The notes under the pieces are model-generated. The model was not told where the DNA came from, ran no database searches, and worked only from the letters and a program-made list of their open reading frames with translations. Positions 85-10,164 of a stretch of 10,164 bases of DNA are shown here, piece after piece. The stretch comes from a virus (taxonomy: Duplodnaviria; Heunggongvirae; Uroviricota; Caudoviricetes). A program made the position numbers and the translations under genes. Each line of letters begins with the position of its first letter. Position 1 is the first letter of the stretch. The stretch is taken from the IMG/VR virus record IMGVR_UViG_2617270946_000003, one strand, 5' to 3'.

Positions 85-1323
85 CTATGATATGCGCTGA
101 AATAATCCTGCCTGTCTGATACCCGGAGATGATGTCCATAGCATCGGACCACATGCACGCCACGTGCCCGGTAAACGGGTCTCCCCCACATTACCGGAAG
201 CAACCAGGGGAGTACCATCCGAAAGGCAACATGCAGACAGTGATGAGCCGGCAATGGCTGAGCCCGGTGCCATATCCCCCGAATAACTCGTCGCATAATA
301 TGCCGCAAGGACAAAAGAACCGACACCAAACAGTCCGCTGTCAGGACTTCCTGACGGTCCCTGAGGTCCTGCCGGACCTGCGGCTCCCGTATCTCCTTTT
401 GGCCCCTGAGGCCCTGCCTGACCTGCGGCTCCCGTATCCCCTTTTGGCCCCTGTGGTCCTGCCGGGCCTGCAGCTCCCGTATCTCCCTTTGGCCCCTGAG
501 GTCCTGCCGGACCTGCGGCTCCCGTATCTCCTTTTGGCCCCTGAGGTCCTGCCGGGCCTGCAGCTCCCGTATCTCCCTTTGGCCCCTGAGGTCCTGCCGG
601 ACCTGCGGCTCCCGTATCTCCTTTTGGCCCCTGAGGCCCTGCCTGACCTGCGGCTCCCGTATCCCCTTTTGGCCCCTGAGGCCCTGCCGGGCCTGCGGCT
701 CCCGTATCCCCTTTTGGCCCCTGAAGCCCTGCCGGGCCTGTATCCCCCTTGTCGCCCTTCGGTCCCAGTGGTCCGCCCGGATCGCCCTGCTCACCTTTCG
801 GACCTGTATCCCCCTTATCGCCCTTGTCACCTTTATCCCCTTTCGGCCCCGGTGGCCCTGCCGGGCCTGTATCGCCCTTGTCCCCCTTCTGTCCCTGTGG
901 ACCAGTTGCTCCGGTGTCGCCTTTCAGTCCCTGTGGCCCCACGGCAGTTTCGGCTTTCTCAGCAGCTTCTCGCGCCCTGCGCACAGCCTCATCCGCCGCC
1001 GCTTCCAGCTTCTTCAGTGCATCAGGATAATACGCTGCATCCGTTTCACGGAGCAGAAAGGCATTCAGGGTGCCCGGTTCGTCGTCGGCCATGACATCAA
1101 TCTCGCCGGCGCATGCCGGCTGACGACCTTCCACGCACAAGGTCACACGATAACGCCCCGGCTCAACCTGCATGCTGTAACTGCCCGTTTCGCCTGGCTG
1201 GTGCTCTGCCACCGTGGTGACTATCACCGTCTCACTCGTTCGCGTGGCTTTCAGCTCTATGGTGCAGTCCGGTACCGGTTTTCCTGTACCATCCTTCAGC
1301 ACACCTGAAATCTGTACTGACAT
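85..1323 (-). CDS. stf: Side tail fibre protein with collagen-like (Gly-X-Y) repeat shaft; N-terminal ~100 aa resemble the lambda Stf N-terminal domain
   Basis: 412-aa ORF with ATG at 1323..1321 preceded by a G-rich SD. N-terminus [17 protein letters not shown]...GTLNAFL resembles lambda Stf ([26 protein letters not shown]...GTLNDFL, from memory). Followed by a charged helical segment, then ~65 Gly-X-Y triplets and a ~95-aa non-repetitive C-terminus. Confidence 0.85.
359..718. repeat. Eight near-identical head-to-tail copies of a 45-bp unit (15 codons, [15 protein letters not shown]-type) inside the fibre gene
   Basis: Unit cctgaggtcctgccggacctgcggctcccgtatctccttttggcc begins at 359, 404, 449, 494, 539, 584, 629 and 674. 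Units at 359, 494 and 584 are identical, as are those at 404 and 629. More degenerate 9-bp collagen triplet repeats continue to ~942. Confidence 0.92.
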
Positions 1324-2096
1324 ATTCCCCCCACAAAAAAGCCCACCAGAACCGGCGGGCTGTCATAACTCTGTGTTACCTGGCTATGGTAGTTCACCGT
1401 CATCTGCTGACCACCAAACTGCTCCGCATCCACCTGCATCCCCACAATGGCCGTGTTCGGGTAGCACTGTTTCACATCGATGATTTCGGTGTATGACGAC
1501 CACAGCGTTCTGTTCTGCAGCTGGTCCGTGGTGCTGTCCGCCGTCTCCCTGACCATCCGGATGTTAAAGGGGCGGGGAGGCAGATTATCCAGAATCACCG
1601 AGGCCAGGAACTGTGAGGTGGTCTTGCCGTTAATGGTGACATCCTTTTCTGTCACCCAGTTACCGTTACGCTGTAACTGAATCAGCAGACGGACAGAGGA
1701 CGGATTACGGTCACCCTTTGACGTGGTCTCCACCAGTGACTGCACCCCGAAGGTCACCCGCAGGCGGTCAATGTTCGCTGACGTAATGGTGCGTGTTACC
1801 GGTTTTGCCCTGGTCACTTCGACACCCAGTACAGTTTCAGAGCCGGAGGACTCAAAGCCTTCCGGTGGTGTCTGCTCCTGCTCCCCGGCACGCCAGACCG
1901 CGGTCACACCGTGTATCACGGGATTACCGTCCGTGTCCGTCAGCGGGGTTTTGTTCACCAGAATACTCTGCAGGCTTTTCACCGGGCCTTCTATCGGTCC
2001 CTCACCAATCGCATCAATCACGCTCATCATCTGCGTGGATTTGAGATTGTCTTTCGCCTCACGAGGCGTGTGTGCCTTACCGCCACCTTTTCCCAT
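1296..2096 (-). pseudogene. J: Truncated central tail fibre / host specificity protein J: only the N-terminal ~236 codons, then ~30 unrelated codons to a stop
   Basis: MGKGGGKAHTPREAKDNLKSTQ...NIRMVRETADSTTDQLQNRTLWSSYTEIIDVKQCYPNTA matches the lambda J N-terminus (MGKGSSKGHTPREAKDNLKSTQ..., from memory) at roughly 80% identity. Similarity stops after ...QQMTVNYH (~1385). Lambda J is 1132 aa. SD GGGGAAGG precedes the ATG at 2096. Confidence 0.85.
1333..1361 (-). terminator. Hairpin plus U-tract just upstream of the fibre start codon (putative intrinsic terminator/attenuator)
   Basis: Minus-strand RNA AGCCCGCCGG-UU-CUGGUGGGCU followed by UUUUUUGU, ~10 nt before the fibre ATG. Stem includes two G-U pairs. 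Confidence 0.4.
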
Positions 2097-2335: not shown

Positions 2336-2441
2336 GCGTTAATTTTTTTGTCGTGATATAAGAATAATTCCTTACACTTAATCTTCGTAACTCTCCCGCA
2401 GTTCCTGTCCGCGATCACTGCGGGATTTTTTTATTCTTTTT
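2336..2441 (+). ncRNA. Candidate ~100-nt non-coding transcript between the predicted promoter and the plus-strand terminator
   Basis: No ATG-initiated ORF between 2336 and 2424 on the plus strand. Bounded by the promoter (2302..2329) and the terminator hairpin (2395..2424) plus T-tract. Purely a sequence-based prediction. Confidence 0.25.
2395..2441 (+). terminator. Plus-strand intrinsic terminator abutting the 3' end of gene I
   Basis: Stem cccgcag (2395..2401) / ctgcggg (2418..2424) followed by tttttttattcttttt (2426..2441). On the minus strand the A-run precedes the stem, so it is oriented for plus-strand termination only. Confidence 0.5.
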
Positions 2442-3105
2442 ACCCCTGCCGCCCGATAACCACGACCTTTCCGCCCCCGCCTTCATCACGGGTGCTGATG
2501 TCCTGGGATATACGGCGGGAGCCAACCAGCATTTCCCCGTAAGGCACCGGCATCGGGTTCCCCTGGGCAATCATGTTATCCAGCGAGGAAAAGTACGTGT
2601 TCTGTCTGCCGTTATCCGTTGCGCGGTAATCCGGTGTTTTTGCCTTCGGGGCCAGCATCTGGGCCACACCGCCCAGTATCATGCTGGCACCCAGTGAAAA
2701 CAGCATCGTGGTGGCAGAAAAACCACCGGCACTCAGGGCTGTACCCCATAACGCCATCGAGCCTCCGGCCGTGAAGAAAGAGCCCACGATGGCTGCCGCC
2801 CCCAACACAATCTGCAGTCCACCCTTTCCGGCCCCGGCCAGTCGCGGCACAATGTGGATGACCGTTCCCTCACCCAGCTGTTCGTGAAGGCGGGCGTACA
2901 CCACCTCCGGTGCCGTGTCTTCACCGGCAATACGTATCTGGTACCAGCCTTCGTTCATCTGAAGGCGAAAGCCCGGCATCTGCATCGACAGGGCGCGAAT
3001 GGCTTCCGCTGCCGTGTTCACATACAGGCTGAGGCGGCGGCCAAATCGTTGTAAATCCCCGTGGTTGCCCACGGTTGAGCCAGAGATAACAGCTTCCACC
3101 ATCAT
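2440..3105 (-). pseudogene. I: Tail assembly protein I homologue lacking its native N-terminus (first ~15 codons come from the FII/I deletion junction)
   Basis: From residue ~16 (GDLQRFGRR...) to the C-terminus (...GGKVVVIGRQG) it resembles lambda gpI (223 aa, from memory). The ATG at 3105 lies inside FII-derived sequence in another frame. Stop TAA at 2442..2440. Confidence 0.75.
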
Positions 3106-3391
3106 CCGGCGAAACCCGGTCTATCCAGAAGTTTTCCTCACCGATGGTCAGCGTGTCTCCACGCCGCAGTTGCCGCACATCATCAGTCCGGACAAACAGG
3201 GACGGGCTGGAGCCTTCAACGCGCACGCCCTGTCCGGCATAGCTGATATTTTCAGGGTCATCAAAAACACCACGTATTACTGCGCCGGACTGCTCACCGG
3301 ATGTCATGGTGGCTGACGTTCCCATGTACCCGCGTATCGTTTCATCGGCGCGGGCAATGGCAGCATCGAACAGGTTATCGAAATCAGCCAC
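2921..3391 (-). pseudogene. FII: Head-tail joining protein FII with altered 3' end: ~110 lambda-like codons, then read-through into gene I sequence out of frame (156-aa chimeric ORF)
   Basis: MADFDNLFDAAIARADETIRGYMGTSAT...EENFWIDRVSPDDGGSCYLWL matches lambda FII (117 aa) and diverges after ~residue 110. GTG start at 3391 with SD GGGAGG 4 nt upstream. The FI-FII gap is 11 nt, as in lambda. Confidence 0.8.
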
Positions 3392-3402
3392 AGCGCCTCC
3401 CG

Positions 3403-3798
3403 TTATTGCATTCTGGCCAGGCCGCGCTCTGTCATTTCAGCTGCCACACCGGCAGAGACACGGAACGCCGTTCCCGGCAGCACAAATGCCACAGTGTCAT
3501 CCCGCGTGGCGTGAAGTGCATCAGTATGCAGCGTCACCAGTGCCACGACCGTGACCAGAGCAGCCGTATCAATCACGGTATCCGGCTGCGCTGATACCAC
3601 CTCATTTTCATGTCCGGTCAGCGCATTTTCCGGGCTGACAGATGTGTCCTGACCGGCAGCGTCATCCGTGTCATCAAGCTCCTCTTCCAGCTCTGCCACA
3701 CGGAGCACCAGTTCTTCTTTCGTCCCCGTCAGGCTGACATCACGGTTCAGTTGCTCACCCAGCACCTGAAGACGGGCAATCAGTTCATCTTTCGTCAT
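3403..3798 (-). CDS. FI: DNA packaging / head assembly protein FI
   Basis: 131 aa from the ATG at 3798 (MTKDELIARL...AEMTERGLARMQ) matches lambda gpFI (132 aa). SD GGAGGAG upstream. The upstream extension in the ORF track (MALRGHF...) overlaps a hairpin and is not taken as the start. Confidence 0.9.
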   Translation of the reverse strand: MTKDELIARLQVLGEQLNRDVSLTGTKEELVLRVAELEEELDDTDDAAGQDTSVSPENALTGHENEVVSAQPDTVIDTAALVTVVALVTLHTDALHATRDDTVAFVLPGTAFRVSAGVAAEMTERGLARMQ

Positions 3799-3807
3799 GG
3801 ACTCCTC

Positions 3808-3837
3808 CACAGAGAGAAAATGGCCCCGAAGGGCCAT
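3808..3837 (-). terminator. Stable hairpin with UUCG tetraloop plus U-rich tract directly after the major capsid gene stop (attenuator or mRNA-stabilising element)
   Basis: Minus-strand RNA AUGGCCC-UUCG-GGGCCAU (3837..3820) followed by UUUUCUCUCU, in the 41-nt gap between E and FI. Confidence 0.4.
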
Positions 3838-3839
3838 GA

Positions 3840-4865
3840 TTACGCCAGTTGTACGGACACGAACGCATCAGGATCAGCCAGCAGCATCAGCGGTGCTGAC
3901 TGAATCATGGTGAACTCACGCGCCGGATCGCCGGTGGTCACCCAGTTTTTCGGGTAGCGGGCAGAGGCGTTAATACCTTCGCGCTGTGCGTCCGCATCCT
4001 GAATGCAGCCATAGGTGCGCAGACCGCGTGCCTGAGTGTTCCCCAGCACCATCGTGTTGTCCGGCAGGAAGTTCTTTTTGACGTCGTTTTCCACGTACTG
4101 TCCGGAATACACGACGATCGCCGTATCGCCATACATCCCCTTATAGGACACCGCTTCGCCCAGGTCTTTTACCGCTGTCTCCAGCTCGGAATTAGAGCCG
4201 CGACGGGTATCCAGCTTCTCCTTGACGGCTTTGAAGGAACGGAACAGCGCCCAGCCTTTCGGATCAAACACGATGATATTCACCACGCCGCTGGCGTTCA
4301 GCGCGTAGGCTTCGATATCGTCGGTCGGGTCATACGTGGACTTGTCACGCTTGCTCCACTCCGTGCCGCCGGACTGCGTGATGTTGTTCGCCGCACTGCG
4401 GCCCATATCCACCTCAACCGGATCGAAGGCTTCACCGGTCATGGTGTATTTGCCCTTGAGCACGGCAGAAACGGCCTGCATCTCTTCGACCTGAGCAATG
4501 GCCAGCTCTTCGTCACGCATGTTCTGCATGATGATGCGACGGCGGCGGTAAGTCGGGTCCGCCAGATTCTGCGGATCTTCATCCGGCAGGCGACGCAGGG
4601 TCATCTGCGGATTCACTTCATGCTTGGGTTTGACATATCCCGGCGTAAATTCAGAGGTGGAGCCGCCACGGGAACGGATAACCTCACCGGAAACAATCGG
4701 CGAAACGTACAGCGCCATGTTTACCAGTCCCGGAATTTGTGAGAGATAGACTTTCTCCGTAGTGAAGGGATAGCTCTCACGGAAAAAGAGACGCAGAAAC
4801 AGCGGATCAAACTTAAATTTCTGCTCATTTGCCGCCAGCAGCTGGGCGGTTGTGTACATCGACAT
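3840..4865 (-). CDS. E: Major capsid protein E
   Basis: 341 aa, MSMYTTAQLLAANEQKFKFDPLFLRLFF...FVSVQLA, essentially lambda gpE, with identical length and identical gaps to D (55 nt) and FI (41 nt). Confidence 0.97.
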   Translation of the reverse strand: MSMYTTAQLLAANEQKFKFDPLFLRLFFRESYPFTTEKVYLSQIPGLVNMALYVSPIVSGEVIRSRGGSTSEFTPGYVKPKHEVNPQMTLRRLPDEDPQNLADPTYRRRRIIMQNMRDEELAIAQVEEMQAVSAVLKGKYTMTGEAFDPVEVDMGRSAANNITQSGGTEWSKRDKSTYDPTDDIEAYALNASGVVNIIVFDPKGWALFRSFKAVKEKLDTRRGSNSELETAVKDLGEAVSYKGMYGDTAIVVYSGQYVENDVKKNFLPDNTMVLGNTQARGLRTYGCIQDADAQREGINASARYPKNWVTTGDPAREFTMIQSAPLMLLADPDAFVSVQLA

Positions 4866-4871
4866 AAAAAA

Positions 4872-4903
4872 ATCCCGTAAAAAAAGCCGAACAGGCGGCC
4901 TTT
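4872..4903 (-). terminator. Hairpin plus long U-tract in the D-E intergenic region
   Basis: Minus-strand RNA AAGGCCG-CCUGUU-CGGCUUU followed by UUUUACGGGAUUUUUUU immediately before the E ATG. Confidence 0.3.
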
Positions 4904-4920
4904 AGTGATGAAGGGTAAAG

Positions 4921-5253
4921 TTAAACGATGCTGATTGCCGTTCCGGCAAACGCGGTCCGTTTTTTCGTCTCGTCGCTGGCAGCCTCCGGCCAGAGCACAT
5001 CCTCATAACGGAACGTGCCGGACTTGTAGAACGTCAGCGTGGTGCTGGTCTGGTCAGCAGCAACCGCAAGAATGCCAACGGCAGCACCGTCGGTGGTGCC
5101 ATCCCACGCAACCAGCTTACGGGTGGAGGTGTCCAGCATCAGCGGGGTCATTGCAGGCGCTTTCGCACTCAATCCGCCGGGCGCGGTTGCGGTATGAGCC
5201 GGGTCACTGTTGCCCAGCGGCTGGTAATGGGTAAAGGTTTCTTTGCTCGTCAT
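4921..5253 (-). CDS. D: Head decoration protein D
   Basis: 110 aa from the ATG at 5253 ([12 protein letters not shown]...TAISIV), near-identical to lambda gpD. SD AAGGG 6 nt upstream. The ORF track start at 5259 (MFM...) is 2 codons too long. Confidence 0.95.
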
Positions 5254-5262
5254 AAACATCCC

Positions 5263-5868
5263 TTACACTGGTGTGTTCAGCAAATCGTTAACGGCATCAG
5301 ATGCCAGGTTACCTGCAGCCAGCGGTGCCGGTGCCCCCTGCATCAGACGATCCAGCGCAGTATCACTGCGCGCCTGTGCACTCTGTGGTGCTGCGGCCAG
5401 AATGCGGCGGGCCGTTTCCACGGTCATACCGGGGGGTTCTGCCAGCACGCGGGCCTGTTCTTCGCGTCCGTGAGCCTCCTCACAGTTGAGGATCCCCATA
5501 ATGCGGCTGTTTTCTGCCGCAACCGCAGCGTTGATCTGCGCGTTCACGTCCGGCTGCGCCGCGCTGGCGTTTTCGCCCTCCATCGCTGGCACCACGCCAG
5601 TAACGTCAGCCTGCGAAGCAGTGGCTGAAACAGTTGTTGATTGAGTCTCTTTGGTCATTCGCCCTCCTGAGAGACGGGATTTACGTGCATCCAGTGCATC
5701 ACGCATGATGGTGATCGCATCGGTACTGTTAACAAGTTCATCAGCCAGTCCGGCATCAATGGCCTCCTGACCGCTGTACACTGCAGCCTCGGTATCCAGC
5801 ACAGCCTGCACGGACAGGCCGGTATATGCCGACACCTTCTGTGCAAACATCCGGCGGGTTGCATCCAT
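5263..5868 (-). CDS. Nu3: Scaffolding protein Nu3, nested in frame within the 3' third of C
   Basis: In-frame ATG at 5868 (MDATRRMFAQ...) gives 201 aa sharing the C stop, the same length and arrangement as lambda Nu3. No strong SD is visible, so confidence is lower. Confidence 0.6.
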   Translation of the reverse strand: MDATRRMFAQKVSAYTGLSVQAVLDTEAAVYSGQEAIDAGLADELVNSTDAITIMRDALDARKSRLSGGRMTKETQSTTVSATASQADVTGVVPAMEGENASAAQPDVNAQINAAVAAENSRIMGILNCEEAHGREEQARVLAEPPGMTVETARRILAAAPQSAQARSDTALDRLMQGAPAPLAAGNLASDAVNDLLNTPV

Positions 5869-6582
5869 CCGGGACTGCAGTGTTTCCCGGACATCATCCG
5901 GTAGATGGCTGTAGGGGTTGCCATCCACCTTATGGCTGCCGCTGTAAATCAGCGTGATTTCCACGCCCTGTTTCTCCAGCGCAGCACCGTAATTACTGTG
6001 AGCCATCATGACGCCGATGGAGCCTGTCCGGGCGGTCTGCGTGACCAGACGCCGGGAGGCGGCACTGGCAAGCAGCTGACCTGCGCTGCAGTTCATGTCA
6101 TTGGCCAGCGCCCATACCGGCTTTATGTCACGCACACGGGCGATGATGTCAGCGCAGTCAAATGCCCCTGCCACCATTCCGCCGGGCGTGTCCATATCCA
6201 GCAGAATGCCGTCCACCATCGGGTCGCTGGCAGCCTGTTGCAGACGGGCGATAATGCCGTTGTAACCAGTCATCCCCGAATACGGCTGCAGCGCCCGCGT
6301 CCGGCAGACCAGCGTGCCGGAAACCGGCAGCACGGCGATGCCGTTCATGACCTGATAACTGCGGGCCTGTCGTGGTCCGTCATCATTAACGGATAACGCC
6401 AGCTTCGCGGGTGCCTCTCCGGCAGTCAGGCTGTCACCGGACACCGCATCCGTCAGGCGGCTGATCCCAAGCTGGCCTGCAAGCGCACAAAAGAAAACCC
6501 GCGCATAGGCGGGTTCAAGCATAAGCGGCTCATTAAAGGCCATGCTGGCAATATGCGGGAGATTACGCAGCTCTGCTGTCAC
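5263..6582 (-). CDS. C: Head maturation protease / scaffold C
   Basis: 439 aa from GTG at 6582 (VTAELRNLPHIASMAFNEPLMLEPAYARVFF...), near-identical to lambda gpC. SD GGAGGA 5 nt upstream. Overlaps the end of B by 20 nt, as in lambda. The ORF track start at 6717 is an upstream artefact. Confidence 0.92.
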   Translation of the reverse strand: MTAELRNLPHIASMAFNEPLMLEPAYARVFFCALAGQLGISRLTDAVSGDSLTAGEAPAKLALSVNDDGPRQARSYQVMNGIAVLPVSGTLVCRTRALQPYSGMTGYNGIIARLQQAASDPMVDGILLDMDTPGGMVAGAFDCADIIARVRDIKPVWALANDMNCSAGQLLASAASRRLVTQTARTGSIGVMMAHSNYGAALEKQGVEITLIYSGSHKVDGNPYSHLPDDVRETLQSRMDATRRMFAQKVSAYTGLSVQAVLDTEAAVYSGQEAIDAGLADELVNSTDAITIMRDALDARKSRLSGGRMTKETQSTTVSATASQADVTGVVPAMEGENASAAQPDVNAQINAAVAAENSRIMGILNCEEAHGREEQARVLAEPPGMTVETARRILAAAPQSAQARSDTALDRLMQGAPAPLAAGNLASDAVNDLLNTPV

Positions 6583-7735
6583 TCTTCTCCTCCTCTGTTG
6601 ATTGTCGCAGTCCGGATTCAAATGCCGCAGCCGCCCAGGCGGGCGGTTTAAGACCGGCTGCACGGCGCTCCATCGTTTCACGGACCTGCTGGGCAAAAAT
6701 TTCCTGATAGTCGTCACCGCGTTTTGCGCACTCTTTCTCGTAGGTACTCAGTCCGGCTTCTATCAGCATCACCGCTTCCTGTACTTCTTTCAGACCATCG
6801 ATGGCCATACGACCGGAGCCTATCCAGTCACAGTTCCCCCAGGCGCTGCGGGCTTCCTGAAAGCTGAAACGCGCTTTTGAAGGTAACGTCACCACGCGGC
6901 GAACGATGGCCTCTTCCAGCCAGCACAGAAACATCTGGCTCGCCTGACGGGATGCGACGAATTTTCGCCGCCCCATAAAGTACGCCCACGACTCGTTCGC
7001 ACTGGCCCGTGCCGTGGAATAGCTCATCTGGGCGTAATTCCGGGAAAGCTGCTCATACGAGACACCCAGCCCGGCAGCGATATACCGCAACAGTGACTGC
7101 TCAAACACGGAGTAGCCGTTATCCGTATCCTGAGCCGTCTGCAGGTTCAGTGAGTCACCCGGCATCAGGTGCGGCACTTTTGCGCCTCCCAGCCGAACCG
7201 GTGCTGCGGCGTAATACGCGGCAATTTCACCAATCCAGCCGGTCAGCTTGTCCCGCTGCTCCTGACTGTTCGCGCCCAGAATAAAATCCATCGCTGACTG
7301 CGTATCCAGCTCACTCTCAATGGTGGCGGCATACATCGCCTTCACAATGGCGCTCTGCAGCTGCGTGTTCTGCAGCGTGTCGAGCATCTTCATCTGCTCC
7401 ATCACGCTGTAAAACACATTTGCACCGCGGGTCTGCCCGTCCTCCACGGGTTCAAAAACGTGAATGAACGAGGCGCGCCCGCCGGGTAACTCACGGGGTA
7501 TCCATGTCCATTTCTGCGGCATCCAGCCAGGATAGCCGTCCTCGCTGACGTAATATCCCAGCGCCGCACCGCTGTCATTAATCTGCACACCGGCACGGCA
7601 GTTCCGGCTGTCGCCGGTATTGTTCGGGTTGCTGATGCGCTTCGGGCTGACCATCCGGAACTGTGTCCGGAAAAGCCACGACGGACTGGTATCCCAGGTG
7701 GCCTGAACGAACAGTTCACCGTTAAAGGCGTGCAT
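6563..7735 (-). pseudogene. B: Portal protein B lacking roughly its N-terminal 143 codons
   Basis: C-terminal ~390 aa (MHAFNGELFVQATWDTS...EEEKSDSRAA) match lambda gpB (533 aa). The A-stop to C-start distance is 1193 nt here versus 1781 nt in lambda, so 588 bp are missing. The first in-frame ATG is 7735; the track start at 7759 is TTG. Confidence 0.85.
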
Positions 7736-7778
7736 GCAGTGCCGCACGGGCAGCGGCAAGTTCTTCCTGTCGCGTCAT
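7722..7778 (-). pseudogene. W: Remnant of head-tail joining gene W: 15 conserved codons, then 3 novel codons and a stop
   Basis: ATG at 7778 overlaps the A stop (ATGA). Translation [18 protein letters not shown]-stop versus lambda W [21 protein letters not shown]... (68 aa). Confidence 0.7.
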
Positions 7779-9700
7779 TCATCCTCTCCGGATAAGGCAC
7801 GGGCGTAATCTGCCAGTGTTTTCTTGTTGGTTGCTGCACCATCCTCTTCCTTCAGGCTCGCCAGCAGTGCACTGAGATCCAGCTGCCAGCGGGAAATACT
7901 GATGCGCAGCGCCGCCAGCGCATAAACGAAGCAGTCGAGCGCCTCATTGCGTCGTTTTTTGCTGTCCCACAGTATTTTTTTCCTGCCATCCACCCATTTT
8001 TCGACCTGCTCTTCAGCCGTCAGCTGCTGCGCTTCGGTCAGATCAAAAATATCCGGGTTATTCGGGAAGTGAACGGCACCGGGAAGCGGTTCATCCCCTT
8101 CCGGCGTCAGTGTGAAGCGGTTATAAATCTGCTCTTTCGCGGTATCCGTACCGATTTCGGTAAGGTAAACCCCGTTTTTGTTTCGCTTACGTGGCATGCT
8201 GGCCACCGGCTTTCCGTAGACGGATGCCCCTTTAATGGGGATCACCCGGAACAGCCCATGTTTTTTCGAGCGTTCATACACGATGGTCGGGTCAATCCCG
8301 CCAGTATCCCAGCAGATACGGGATACCGACATTTCTGCACCATTCCGGCGGGTATAGGTTTTATTGATGGCCTCATCCACACGCAGCAGCGTCTGTTCAT
8401 CGTCGTGGCGGCCCATAATAATCTGCCGATCAATCAGCCAGCTTTCCTCACCCGGCCCCCATCCCCATACGCGCATTTCGTAGCGATCCAGCTGGGAGTC
8501 GATACCGGCGGTCAGGTAAGCCACACGGTCAGGAACGGGCGCTGAATAATGCTCTTTCCGCTCTGCCATCACTTCAGCATCCGGACGTTCGCCAATTTTC
8601 GCCTCCCACGTCTCACCGAGCGTGGTGTTTACGAAGGTTTTACGTTTTCCCGTATCCCCTTTCGTTTTCATCCAGTCTTTGACAATCTGCACCCAGGTGG
8701 TGAACGGGCTGTACGCTGTCCAGATGTGAAAGGTCACACTGTCAGGTGGCTCAATCTCTTCACCGGATGACGAAAACCAGAGAATGCCATCACGGGTCCA
8801 GATCCCGGTCTTTTCGCAGATATAACGGGCATCAGTAAAGTCCAGCTCCTGCTGGCAGATGACGCAGGCATTATGCTCGCAGAGATAAAACACGCTGGAG
8901 GGGTCATCCGGCGTCCATTTGAGGCCAAACGGCGTCTCTTTGTCGCCAAATTTAAGATACTGCTCCTCCCCGCAGTGCGGGCAGGCAACATGAAAACGCA
9001 TAAAATGCGGGGATTCACTGGCTGCACGCTCAATCTGGCAGGTGCCTCTCACTTTGGGCGTGGAGCCACGGATGGACTTTGGCCAGACCGAGCCTTCAAT
9101 ACGCTTATCGCCCAGGAACGTCGGAGAGCCTTCCTGTTCAATATCCTCATCAAAGGCAGCAAGTTCATCATAACCCGCCACATCCACTGACTTTTCACGG
9201 TAGTTTTTTGCCGCTTTACCGCCCAGGCACCAGAAGCCACGACCATTGGAAAAACGCTTCATGGTGAGCGTGTTATCCCGGTGCTTTTTGCCATACCACG
9301 GGGCCAGCGCCAGCAGCGACGGAATATCACGAATAGTCGGTTCAACGTGGGTTTTCATAAAGTTCTCGGCATCACCATCCGTCGGCAACCAGATAAGGGT
9401 GTTGCGCTGCTTATGCTCTATGAAGTAGGCATAAACACCCAGCAGCATTTTGGAATAACCAACACGGGCAGACTTCACCACATTCACCTCACGGATGTAG
9501 TCGCTGCCCATCGCATTCATGATGGCCCGCTGAAAGGGCAGTGTTTCCCAGCGCCCTTCCTGGTATGCGGATTCTTTCGGGAGATAGTAATTGGCATCCG
9601 CCCATTCAACGGCGGTCTGTGGCTCCGGCCTGAACAGTGAGCGAAGCCCGGCGCGGACAAAATGCCGCAGCCTGTTAACCTGACTGTTCGATATATTCAC
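7775..9700 (-). CDS. A: Terminase large subunit A
   Basis: 641 aa (MNISNSQVNRLRHFVRAGLRSLFRPEPQTAVEWADANYYLP...LADYARALSGEDE), near-identical to lambda gpA and the same length. The start codon at 9700 is GTG in this sequence. Overlaps Nu1 by 26 nt, as in lambda. Confidence 0.97.
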   Translation of the reverse strand: MNISNSQVNRLRHFVRAGLRSLFRPEPQTAVEWADANYYLPKESAYQEGRWETLPFQRAIMNAMGSDYIREVNVVKSARVGYSKMLLGVYAYFIEHKQRNTLIWLPTDGDAENFMKTHVEPTIRDIPSLLALAPWYGKKHRDNTLTMKRFSNGRGFWCLGGKAAKNYREKSVDVAGYDELAAFDEDIEQEGSPTFLGDKRIEGSVWPKSIRGSTPKVRGTCQIERAASESPHFMRFHVACPHCGEEQYLKFGDKETPFGLKWTPDDPSSVFYLCEHNACVICQQELDFTDARYICEKTGIWTRDGILWFSSSGEEIEPPDSVTFHIWTAYSPFTTWVQIVKDWMKTKGDTGKRKTFVNTTLGETWEAKIGERPDAEVMAERKEHYSAPVPDRVAYLTAGIDSQLDRYEMRVWGWGPGEESWLIDRQIIMGRHDDEQTLLRVDEAINKTYTRRNGAEMSVSRICWDTGGIDPTIVYERSKKHGLFRVIPIKGASVYGKPVASMPRKRNKNGVYLTEIGTDTAKEQIYNRFTLTPEGDEPLPGAVHFPNNPDIFDLTEAQQLTAEEQVEKWVDGRKKILWDSKKRRNEALDCFVYALAALRISISRWQLDLSALLASLKEEDGAATNKKTLADYARALSGEDE

Positions 9701-10164
9701 TCAGCAACCCCGGTATCAGTTCATCCAGCGCGGCTGCTTTGTTCATGGCTTTGATGATATCCCGTTTCAGGAAATCAACATGTCGGTTTTCCAGTTCCGG
9801 AAAACGCCGCTGCACCGACAGGGGGATCCCGTCGAGAATACTGGCAATTTCACCTGCGATCCGCGACAACACGAAAGTACAGAATGCGGTTTCCACCACT
9901 TCAGCGGAGTCTCTGGCATTCTTCAGTTCCTGTGCGTCGGCCTGCGCACGCGTAAGTCGATGGCGTTCGTACTCAATAGTCCCTGGCTGGAGATCTGTCT
10001 CGCTGGCCTGCCGCAGTTCTTCAACTTCCCGGCGCAGCTTTTCGTTCTCAATTTCAGCATCCCTTTCGGCATACCATTTTATGACGGCGGCAGAGTCATA
10101 AAGCACCTCATTACCCTTGCCACCGCCTCGCAGAACGGGCATTCCCTGTTCCTGCCAGTTCTGA
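9675..10164 (-). CDS. Nu1: Terminase small subunit Nu1 (5' end outside the window; ~26 N-terminal codons missing from view)
   Basis: ...QNWQEQGMPVLRGGGKGNEVLYDSAAVIKWYAERDAEIENEKLRREVEELRQASE...SEYIEQSG matches lambda Nu1 residues ~19-181. The frame stays open to the window edge. Confidence 0.93.
   Translation of the reverse strand, partial: QNWQEQGMPVLRGGGKGNEVLYDSAAVIKWYAERDAEIENEKLRREVEELRQASETDLQPGTIEYERHRLTRAQADAQELKNARDSAEVVETAFCTFVLSRIAGEIASILDGIPLSVQRRFPELENRHVDFLKRDIIKAMNKAAALDELIPGLLSEYIEQSG

Follow-up and report, generated by a model that had tools for sequence, protein, structure and literature searches.

How did a lambda-like element come to have too little DNA between its terminase gene A and its head protease gene C, and what do the full-length head genes around that interval signify? 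The question is raised by IMG/VR virus record IMGVR_UViG_2617270946_000003, a stretch of 10,164 base pairs (bp), referred to here as the window, which is the entire contig JNRI01000098.1 of assembly GCA_000704605.1 and consists of phage sequence throughout. An earlier reading of the sequence alone (the original prediction) had proposed that a 588-bp deletion removed most of the adaptor gene W and the beginning of the portal gene B, and that the head module is either newly inactivated or partly maintained by selection. The explanation that we consider very probable is that a recent 589-bp deletion between two CATG tetranucleotides was one step in the ongoing neutral erosion of a defective lambda-like prophage. 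All of the long open reading frames (ORFs) of interest lie on the minus strand, and the features at the site of the deletion are the following (protein lengths are given in codons or in amino acids, aa).

7775..9700, minus strand: A, terminase large subunit; full length, 641 codons, GTG start; Pfam GpA_ATPase and GpA_nuclease
7722..7778, minus strand: W remnant; ATG at 7778, 15 authentic gpW codons followed by A-R-L, TAA at 7724-7722
7733..7736, minus strand: deletion junction; a single CATG copy with no inserted bases
6563..7735, minus strand: portal remnant B'; lambda gpB codons 144-533 (390 aa) plus stop (6565-6563)
5263..6582, minus strand: C, head protease/scaffold with nested Nu3; full length, 439 codons; Peptidase_S49

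Aligned with lambda (J02459) by BLASTN, the window falls into two collinear blocks, in which window 10164-7733 corresponds to lambda 247-2678 (98.7% identity) and window 7736-3078 corresponds to lambda 3264-7925 (97.2% identity). As these blocks overlap by 4 nucleotides (nt), 589 bp of lambda are missing from the window, namely lambda 2679-3267 or any equivalent placement within CATG. The distance from the A stop to the C start is 1193 nt in the window (7775-6582), as had been predicted, and 1782 nt in lambda (4418-2636); the deletion itself is therefore real, but the earlier values of 588 bp for its size and 1781 nt for the lambda distance have to be replaced. An identical two-block pattern with a 589-bp gap was obtained against the 30 best phage records and the 30 best complete E. 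coli genomes, and the same gap appears when the prophages of PV0838 and S1-CAM-01-A are aligned individually. In alignment to the lambda W/B region in particular (J02459 2633-4437), the retained parts are direct homologs, with a DNA identity of 97.8-98.6% in the flanks.

The junction has the form of a deletion at microhomology, with a repeat at both ends, one copy of it kept, and neither filler nor mobile-element DNA. The intact left flank, located in W, reads ...CACTGCATG followed by ACCTG, the intact right flank, located in B, reads ...GTGGCCATG followed by CACGCC, and the sequence at the junction in the window is ...CACTGCATGCACGCC. The only motif common to both intact flanks is CATG (lambda 2675-2678 and 3264-3267), so that the shared breakpoint motif noticed earlier is genuine, but it is 4 nt long and not the 7-nt CTGCATG. 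In 200,000 simulated 589-bp deletions within lambda 1-12000, microhomology of at least 4 nt occurred in 2.2% (P = 0.022). At the level of sequence, the W/B change is confirmed as a true deletion at short microhomology, one that would inactivate both W and B. A single event between the two tetranucleotides would have removed W codons 16-68 together with portal codons 1-143, and its likely route would be RecA-independent illegitimate recombination, either by replication slippage or by microhomology end-joining, which sequence alone cannot separate.

The deletion leaves an 18-residue peptide in place of the 68-residue head-tail adaptor (207 nt in intact relatives), and W is cut after codon 15 and terminates three codons later, exactly as the original prediction had stated. 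As only codons 1-15 remain, the remnant does not qualify as a gpW adaptor (Pfam PF02831), and ORF calling yielded no further W-like frame in the window. The predicted loss of the first ~143 portal codons likewise holds, since codon 144 of lambda B corresponds to the ATG at 7735-7733. This ATG had been taken to be the only possible start; it is indeed present, but no stop interrupts the B' frame between it and TTG 7759 upstream, a codon that is preceded by AGGA at a distance of 5 nt and would yield a protein of 398 aa. Because 589 is 1 mod 3, B' is now in the same frame as A, and the two are separated only by the TGA of A (7777-7775, overlapping the W start) and 13 sense codons. Read-through of this stop codon would give an A-B' fusion.

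The published cryo-electron microscopy description places the gpB wing at residues 24-249 and 368-452, the stem at 250-279 and 343-367, the clip at 280-342 and the crown at 453-511, and describes gpW as a helix bundle (4-22 and 37-54) with a β-hairpin (23-36) in which Arg32 clamps DNA and a C-arm (55-68) that binds gpB (PMC10721106). Unlike its lambda counterpart, the portal encoded in the window is without residues 1-143, a stretch that takes in the cleaved leader and, with 120 of its 226 residues, over half of the first wing segment; of gpW, part of the first helix survives, and the β-hairpin, the second helix and the portal-binding C-arm are gone. From established phage genetics, both gpW and gpB are essential for infectious lambda. 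We infer that no gpW adaptor could be made and, from the missing wing segment, that neither a functional portal dodecamer nor prohead nucleation is to be expected. Translational coupling into C is possibly weaker as well, as C begins with a GTG that overlaps the 3' end of B'.

A different origin of the short portal would be a natural lineage that has a ~390-aa portal and no W adaptor, an alternative that the original prediction had itself named. In its database entry B' is simply a 390-aa 'phage portal protein, lambda family', and it scores 210.8 bits against Pfam PF05136 (Phage_portal_2), well above the gathering threshold of 32.9. However, B' matches only positions 111-354 of the 354 in the profile, whereas lambda gpB matches 2-354, and this partial coverage argues that B' is a truncation rather than a member of a short portal family. 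Moreover, in every one of the relatives listed, the flanks are 98-99.7% identical in DNA to loci encoding a 68-aa W and a 533-aa B, and the 15-codon W stub with its frameshifted tail is still in place. The only other 390-aa member examined, the B' cluster representative P0002, was considered as a second occurrence of the deletion and rejected. On its contig (ENA ERZ27318602 k141_1308, metagenomic and lambda-like, with portal ORFs at locus positions 3905-5506) W is intact and the portal is split into 123 and 390 aa by an independent point lesion; the second ORF restarts at Met144, which accounts for a 390-aa sequence serving as cluster representative. A natural lineage of this kind is extremely unlikely.

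The deletion is not confined to a single assembly. The exact B' protein is found on five contigs of draft E. coli gut-isolate assemblies, and four of these contigs, from four assemblies (GCA_000704605.1, GCA_000704585.1, GCA_000687025.1 and GCA_000704665.1), were read; outside the tail-fiber repeat array, the other three differ from the window by 0, 3 and 1 single-nucleotide polymorphisms (SNPs), respectively. The protein carries the strain names Escherichia coli 2-005-03_S4_C1, 2-011-08_S3_C2 and 3-073-06_S3_C1, whose subject_sample_colony pattern is the one used in a study of E. coli from the gut of Tanzanian children (PMC6222053); the isolates' source paper makes no mention of these prophages. 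Judging by their near identity and by the subject identifiers in the strain names, the carriers were assembled independently, from near-clonal isolates that represent at least two children. A 60-nt probe spanning the W/B junction was absent from 5,426 complete E. coli genomes (best single-piece match, 32-33 nt) and from 50,697 phage records, which gave half-matches only. The exact 30-nt junction had no match in GTDB species-representative genomes or JGI metagenome contigs, and its sole match in IMG/VR is one of the carrier contigs. Matches of the probe in O104:H21 that seemed to have full coverage do not represent the same junction, as they consist of two separate pieces in a differently eroded remnant.

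As all of the carriers are draft assemblies from one project whose contigs break at repeated phage sequence (Nu1 and the tail-fiber array), the 589 bp might still be present in the genome and have been collapsed by a short-read assembler. Yet the same junction appears in four separately assembled isolates that are 0-3 SNPs apart elsewhere, a junction homology of 4 nt is far too little to mislead an assembler, W-B has no internal repeat able to cause a collapse, and the contigs are continuous for kilobases on both sides. An assembly artefact is unlikely, and a collapse of this particular kind is very improbable. The assembly might also have been contaminated by a laboratory or engineered lambda derivative, a possibility to which the junction lends some color by creating GCATGC, CATG being a restriction-site core. 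The element, however, has no more than 97-98.7% identity with lambda, the differences being distributed over its whole length, its sequence switches after FII to non-lambda tail genes (70-79% identity), and sister contigs (described below) place it beside potB/potA/pepT/phoQ-like genes or an integrase. The probability of such a contaminant is vanishingly small, and an engineered restriction-site deletion was rejected in view of the divergence from laboratory lambda throughout.

The W/B junction is one of three in the contig. The gene order along the minus strand is Nu1' (cut by the contig end, with 163 codons present and open), A, W', B', C/Nu3, D, E, FI, FII', I, J' and a tail-fiber gene, and the features that follow C are listed here.

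4921..5253, minus strand: D, decoration protein; full length, 110 codons, 108/110 identical to lambda; HDPD
3840..4865, minus strand: E, major capsid protein; full length, 341 codons, 334/341 identical to lambda
3403..3798, minus strand: FI; 131 codons, versus 132 in lambda
2921..3391, minus strand: FII' fusion ORF; 156 codons, versus 117 in lambda
2440..3021, minus strand: I, tail assembly homolog; apparently intact, 193 codons, aligned with PV0838 gpI
1296..2096, minus strand: J' remnant; 266 codons, versus 1132 in lambda J (PV0838 J is similar in size to lambda J)
85..1323, minus strand: side tail-fiber gene; 412 codons, phage_tail_N plus collagen-like repeats

From Nu1 to FII the sequence is 97-99% identical to lambda, lambda-like phages and prophages, and the element resembles lambda in its gene order (Nu1-A-W-B-C/Nu3-D-E-FI-FII), in its overlapping stop/start signals and in the lengths of its A, C, D and E proteins. 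The terminase, protease, scaffold, decoration and capsid genes are full length, as originally predicted; A (636 of 641 residues identical to lambda gpA), C (423 of 439 identical to lambda gpC), D and E contain no internal stops, and ~5.4 kb of head ORFs are without a stop or frameshift.

The two further junctions were defined by comparison with the PV0838 prophage and lambda. At junction 2 (window 3061-3063), a CAC microhomology connects FII, broken off 23 nt short of its stop codon, with the terminal ~46 nt of K, with the loss of Z, U, V, G, T, H, M, L and most of K (approximately lambda 7942-14831, ~6.9 kb). The resulting FII' is authentic up to about codon 110, then runs through the 3' end of K and into I out of frame, and this 156-aa FII-K/I fusion is deposited as a 'tail attachment domain protein'. 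At junction 3 (window 1385-1386), a TA microhomology joins nucleotide ~715 of J to the base after the lom stop, with a loss of ~3.4 kb that comprises most of J (residues ~239 to the end) and all of lom. All three junctions are clean, with microhomologies of 4, 3 and 2 nt and no filler or mobile-element DNA; none of the three was found in the 5,426 complete E. coli genomes, in which 60-nt junction probes gave half-matches only. Because junctions 2 and 3 delete tail genes, no tail or tail tip is possible whatever the state of W/B, and on its gene content the element could not make infectious particles irrespective of W and B. Its collinear homology, combined with the loss of virion-essential genes, points to a defective lambdoid prophage, in which the FII'-K' and J'-lom deletions would have removed the tail already, or at about the same time, when W and B were lost.

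Head genes present without tail genes is also the arrangement of capsid-forming phage-inducible chromosomal islands (cf-PICIs). The element is like these islands in having terminase, protease/scaffold and capsid genes and in being without tail tube and tape-measure genes. Unlike them, it has breakpoints inside FII, K and J, it still carries I, J' and tail-fiber remnants, its portal is broken and its DNA is ~98% lambda. A cf-PICI-like satellite was rejected on the basis of the truncated portal and of the intragenic tail-gene breakpoints, which give rise to fusion ORFs.

Related contigs place these losses in a lineage. The FII fusion protein forms a singleton cluster that occurs on seven contigs, namely the five with the W-B deletion and two sisters, JNRW01000053 and JNRX01000020, the sister-strain assemblies being GCA_000704885.1 and GCA_000704905.1. 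Both sisters match the window from 4013 to its end, junctions 2 and 3 included, with 0 substitutions outside the repeat array in ~3 kb of shared non-repeat sequence. Upstream of window 4013, which falls at E codon ~285, their sequence continues instead in the 5' part of a nanS-like esterase gene, which comes after the Q antiterminator, a methyltransferase and three tRNA genes (JNRW01000053 locus 3060-4066; JNRX01000020 locus 1-1264). In PV0838 coordinates this is a deletion of ~12.5 kb that covers the lysis genes, Nu1, A, W, B, C, D and most of E. JNRW01000053 continues into the chromosomal potB/potA/pepT/phoQ-like genes, and the flank of JNRX01000020 holds integrase, formate/nitrite-transporter-family, MlaA-family and Toluene_X-family (FadL-like) genes; these differing chromosomal flanks suggest rearrangement between prophages. 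As junctions 2 and 3 are common to the sisters, they predate the split of the two sub-lineages, each of which, on this comparison, lost more DNA after the split. The sisters have lost the whole head block, which indicates that the intact head genes are dispensable.

How recent the W/B deletion is can be gauged from relatives in which W and B are intact, a comparison that the original prediction had proposed and that yields one difference in ~1 kb on either side of the junction. The nearest such relative is the S1-CAM-01-A prophage (NZ_CP145714.1, with intact W-B at 2746082-2749808), which differs from the window at 16 positions across window 5001-10164; seven of these 16 differences cluster at a lesion in its frameshifted C gene (window 6505-6512), and a single base differs between window 6513 and 8856. 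Unlike the window, this prophage encodes W (68 aa) and the portal (533 aa) at full length, and has a complete tail module and a frameshifted C (locus positions 10172-11490), so that even the 'intact' comparator is a decaying prophage.

Substitutions private to the window were counted against seven intact relatives. Six positions were found, of which four are non-synonymous (A R282C at 8857; B R163W, in lambda numbering, at 7678; C T383P at 5436, which is confined to this isolate; and E A105T at 4553), one is synonymous and one is intergenic, versus a background among the relatives of 85 non-synonymous to 212 synonymous changes (one-sided Fisher p = 0.028). Both A R282C and B R163W are C-to-T changes in CGN arginine codons. 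This excess suggests relaxed constraint on the retained head genes, in agreement with the loss of the same block from the sisters, and nothing in these genes suggests selection. The integrity of A, C, D and E would instead reflect the recency of decay, and is what would be expected if very little time has passed. The half of the original prediction that called the head module newly inactivated is thus the better supported one, being right about recency, although it omits the tail loss on the same contig; the half that kept some genes under selection finds no support, in view of the deletion of the block in the sisters and of private changes of 4:1 versus 85:212.

It is nevertheless conceivable that the truncated portal, the intact A, C, D and E genes, or both, are kept because they benefit the host. 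The ~5.4 kb of uninterrupted head ORFs would accord with this, as would B', whose frame is open and has plausible start signals, and in which the stem, clip and crown, the segments through which subunits contact each other, are preserved. Against it stand the near-identical sister strains that do without the whole block, the mostly non-synonymous private substitutions, one of which (R163W) lies in B' itself, and the restriction of the allele to a few near-clonal isolates; in so brief a period, ORFs would be expected to stay intact anyway. We consider a host benefit very improbable; it might be conferred, for example, by a dominant-negative portal fragment that poisons the assembly of lambdoid phages upon superinfection, or by head genes that serve as a store for recombination with phages entering the cell. 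There is a very slight chance of a more specific version, in which the 390-398-aa portal is translated, co-assembles with the portals of superinfecting lambda-like phages by virtue of its stem, clip and crown contacts, and poisons their proheads, such that a decaying prophage would double as an anti-phage decoy. Translation would be from the late operon, with a start at TTG 7759 or ATG 7735 or by rare A-B' read-through.

Several observations weigh against neutral erosion by a recent microhomology deletion and should be set beside the evidence for it. A 4-nt microhomology arises by chance in ~2% of cases, so that the mechanism is plausible and not proven. The substitution test comprises five coding changes and seven references, and functional genes, too, show an excess of non-synonymous changes among singletons. 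All of the carrying assemblies apparently come from one study, presumably through one pipeline, and the junction is known from assemblies. The B' frame, open and with possible starts at TTG 7759 and ATG 7735, may be expressed as a truncated protein. Finally, the 589-bp loss may have come before or after the tail loss: the 5,426 complete E. coli genomes and the phage records yielded no intermediate that combines junctions 2 and 3 with an intact W-B, and the sister deletion erases the informative region.

Neutral erosion also places the element in familiar company. Cryptic lambdoid prophages include DLP12, Rac and Qin of E. coli K-12 and the defective prophage pool of O157, and the element is like them in having several internal deletions and truncated or fused structural genes beside intact ones. 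The loss of W/B is an ordinary instance of this already well-known decay of lambdoid prophages in E. coli. A remnant in E. coli 94-3024 (O104:H21; locus 7489-12890) has a 3'-truncated A, an intact W and a portal reduced to a 5' fragment, with the head and proximal tail genes gone and J partial; its breakpoints are independent of those in the window, whose element, with A, C, D, E and FI intact, is at an earlier stage as regards its head genes. The finding matters little beyond bookkeeping, although it provides a clean and well-dated example of lambdoid prophage erosion: three microhomology deletions, and a fourth in the sisters, versus no point substitutions in the shared 3 kb, indicate that deletion drives the decay. 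It also carries a warning for annotation, as the 390-aa portal fragment and the 156-aa fusion are deposited under ordinary protein names, and automated calls of prophage completeness that are based on marker genes would overrate the element.

A few features of the window lie outside these arguments. A promoter scan around the W/B junction found no sigma-70-like site, and the terminator-like matches there are ordinary consensus matches. An Rfam scan of the whole window matched no family, the I-J' spacer included; this spacer (2097-2439) is ~343 bp long, of which ~180 bp (2097-2275) cannot be aligned to the I-J spacers of PV0838 or lambda. The end of J' overlaps the start of the tail-fiber gene, within which a 45-nt unit (15 aa, Gly-X-Y collagen-like) is repeated in tandem at 359-740 in 8.5 copies. 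Copy number and repeat sequence vary among the seven related contigs, giving fibers of 397, 412, 427+ or 442 aa, and several of these contigs end in or near the array, though others read through it, so that assembly may account for some of this variation. A long but spurious antisense ORF (129-1094, plus strand) also arises from the repeats.

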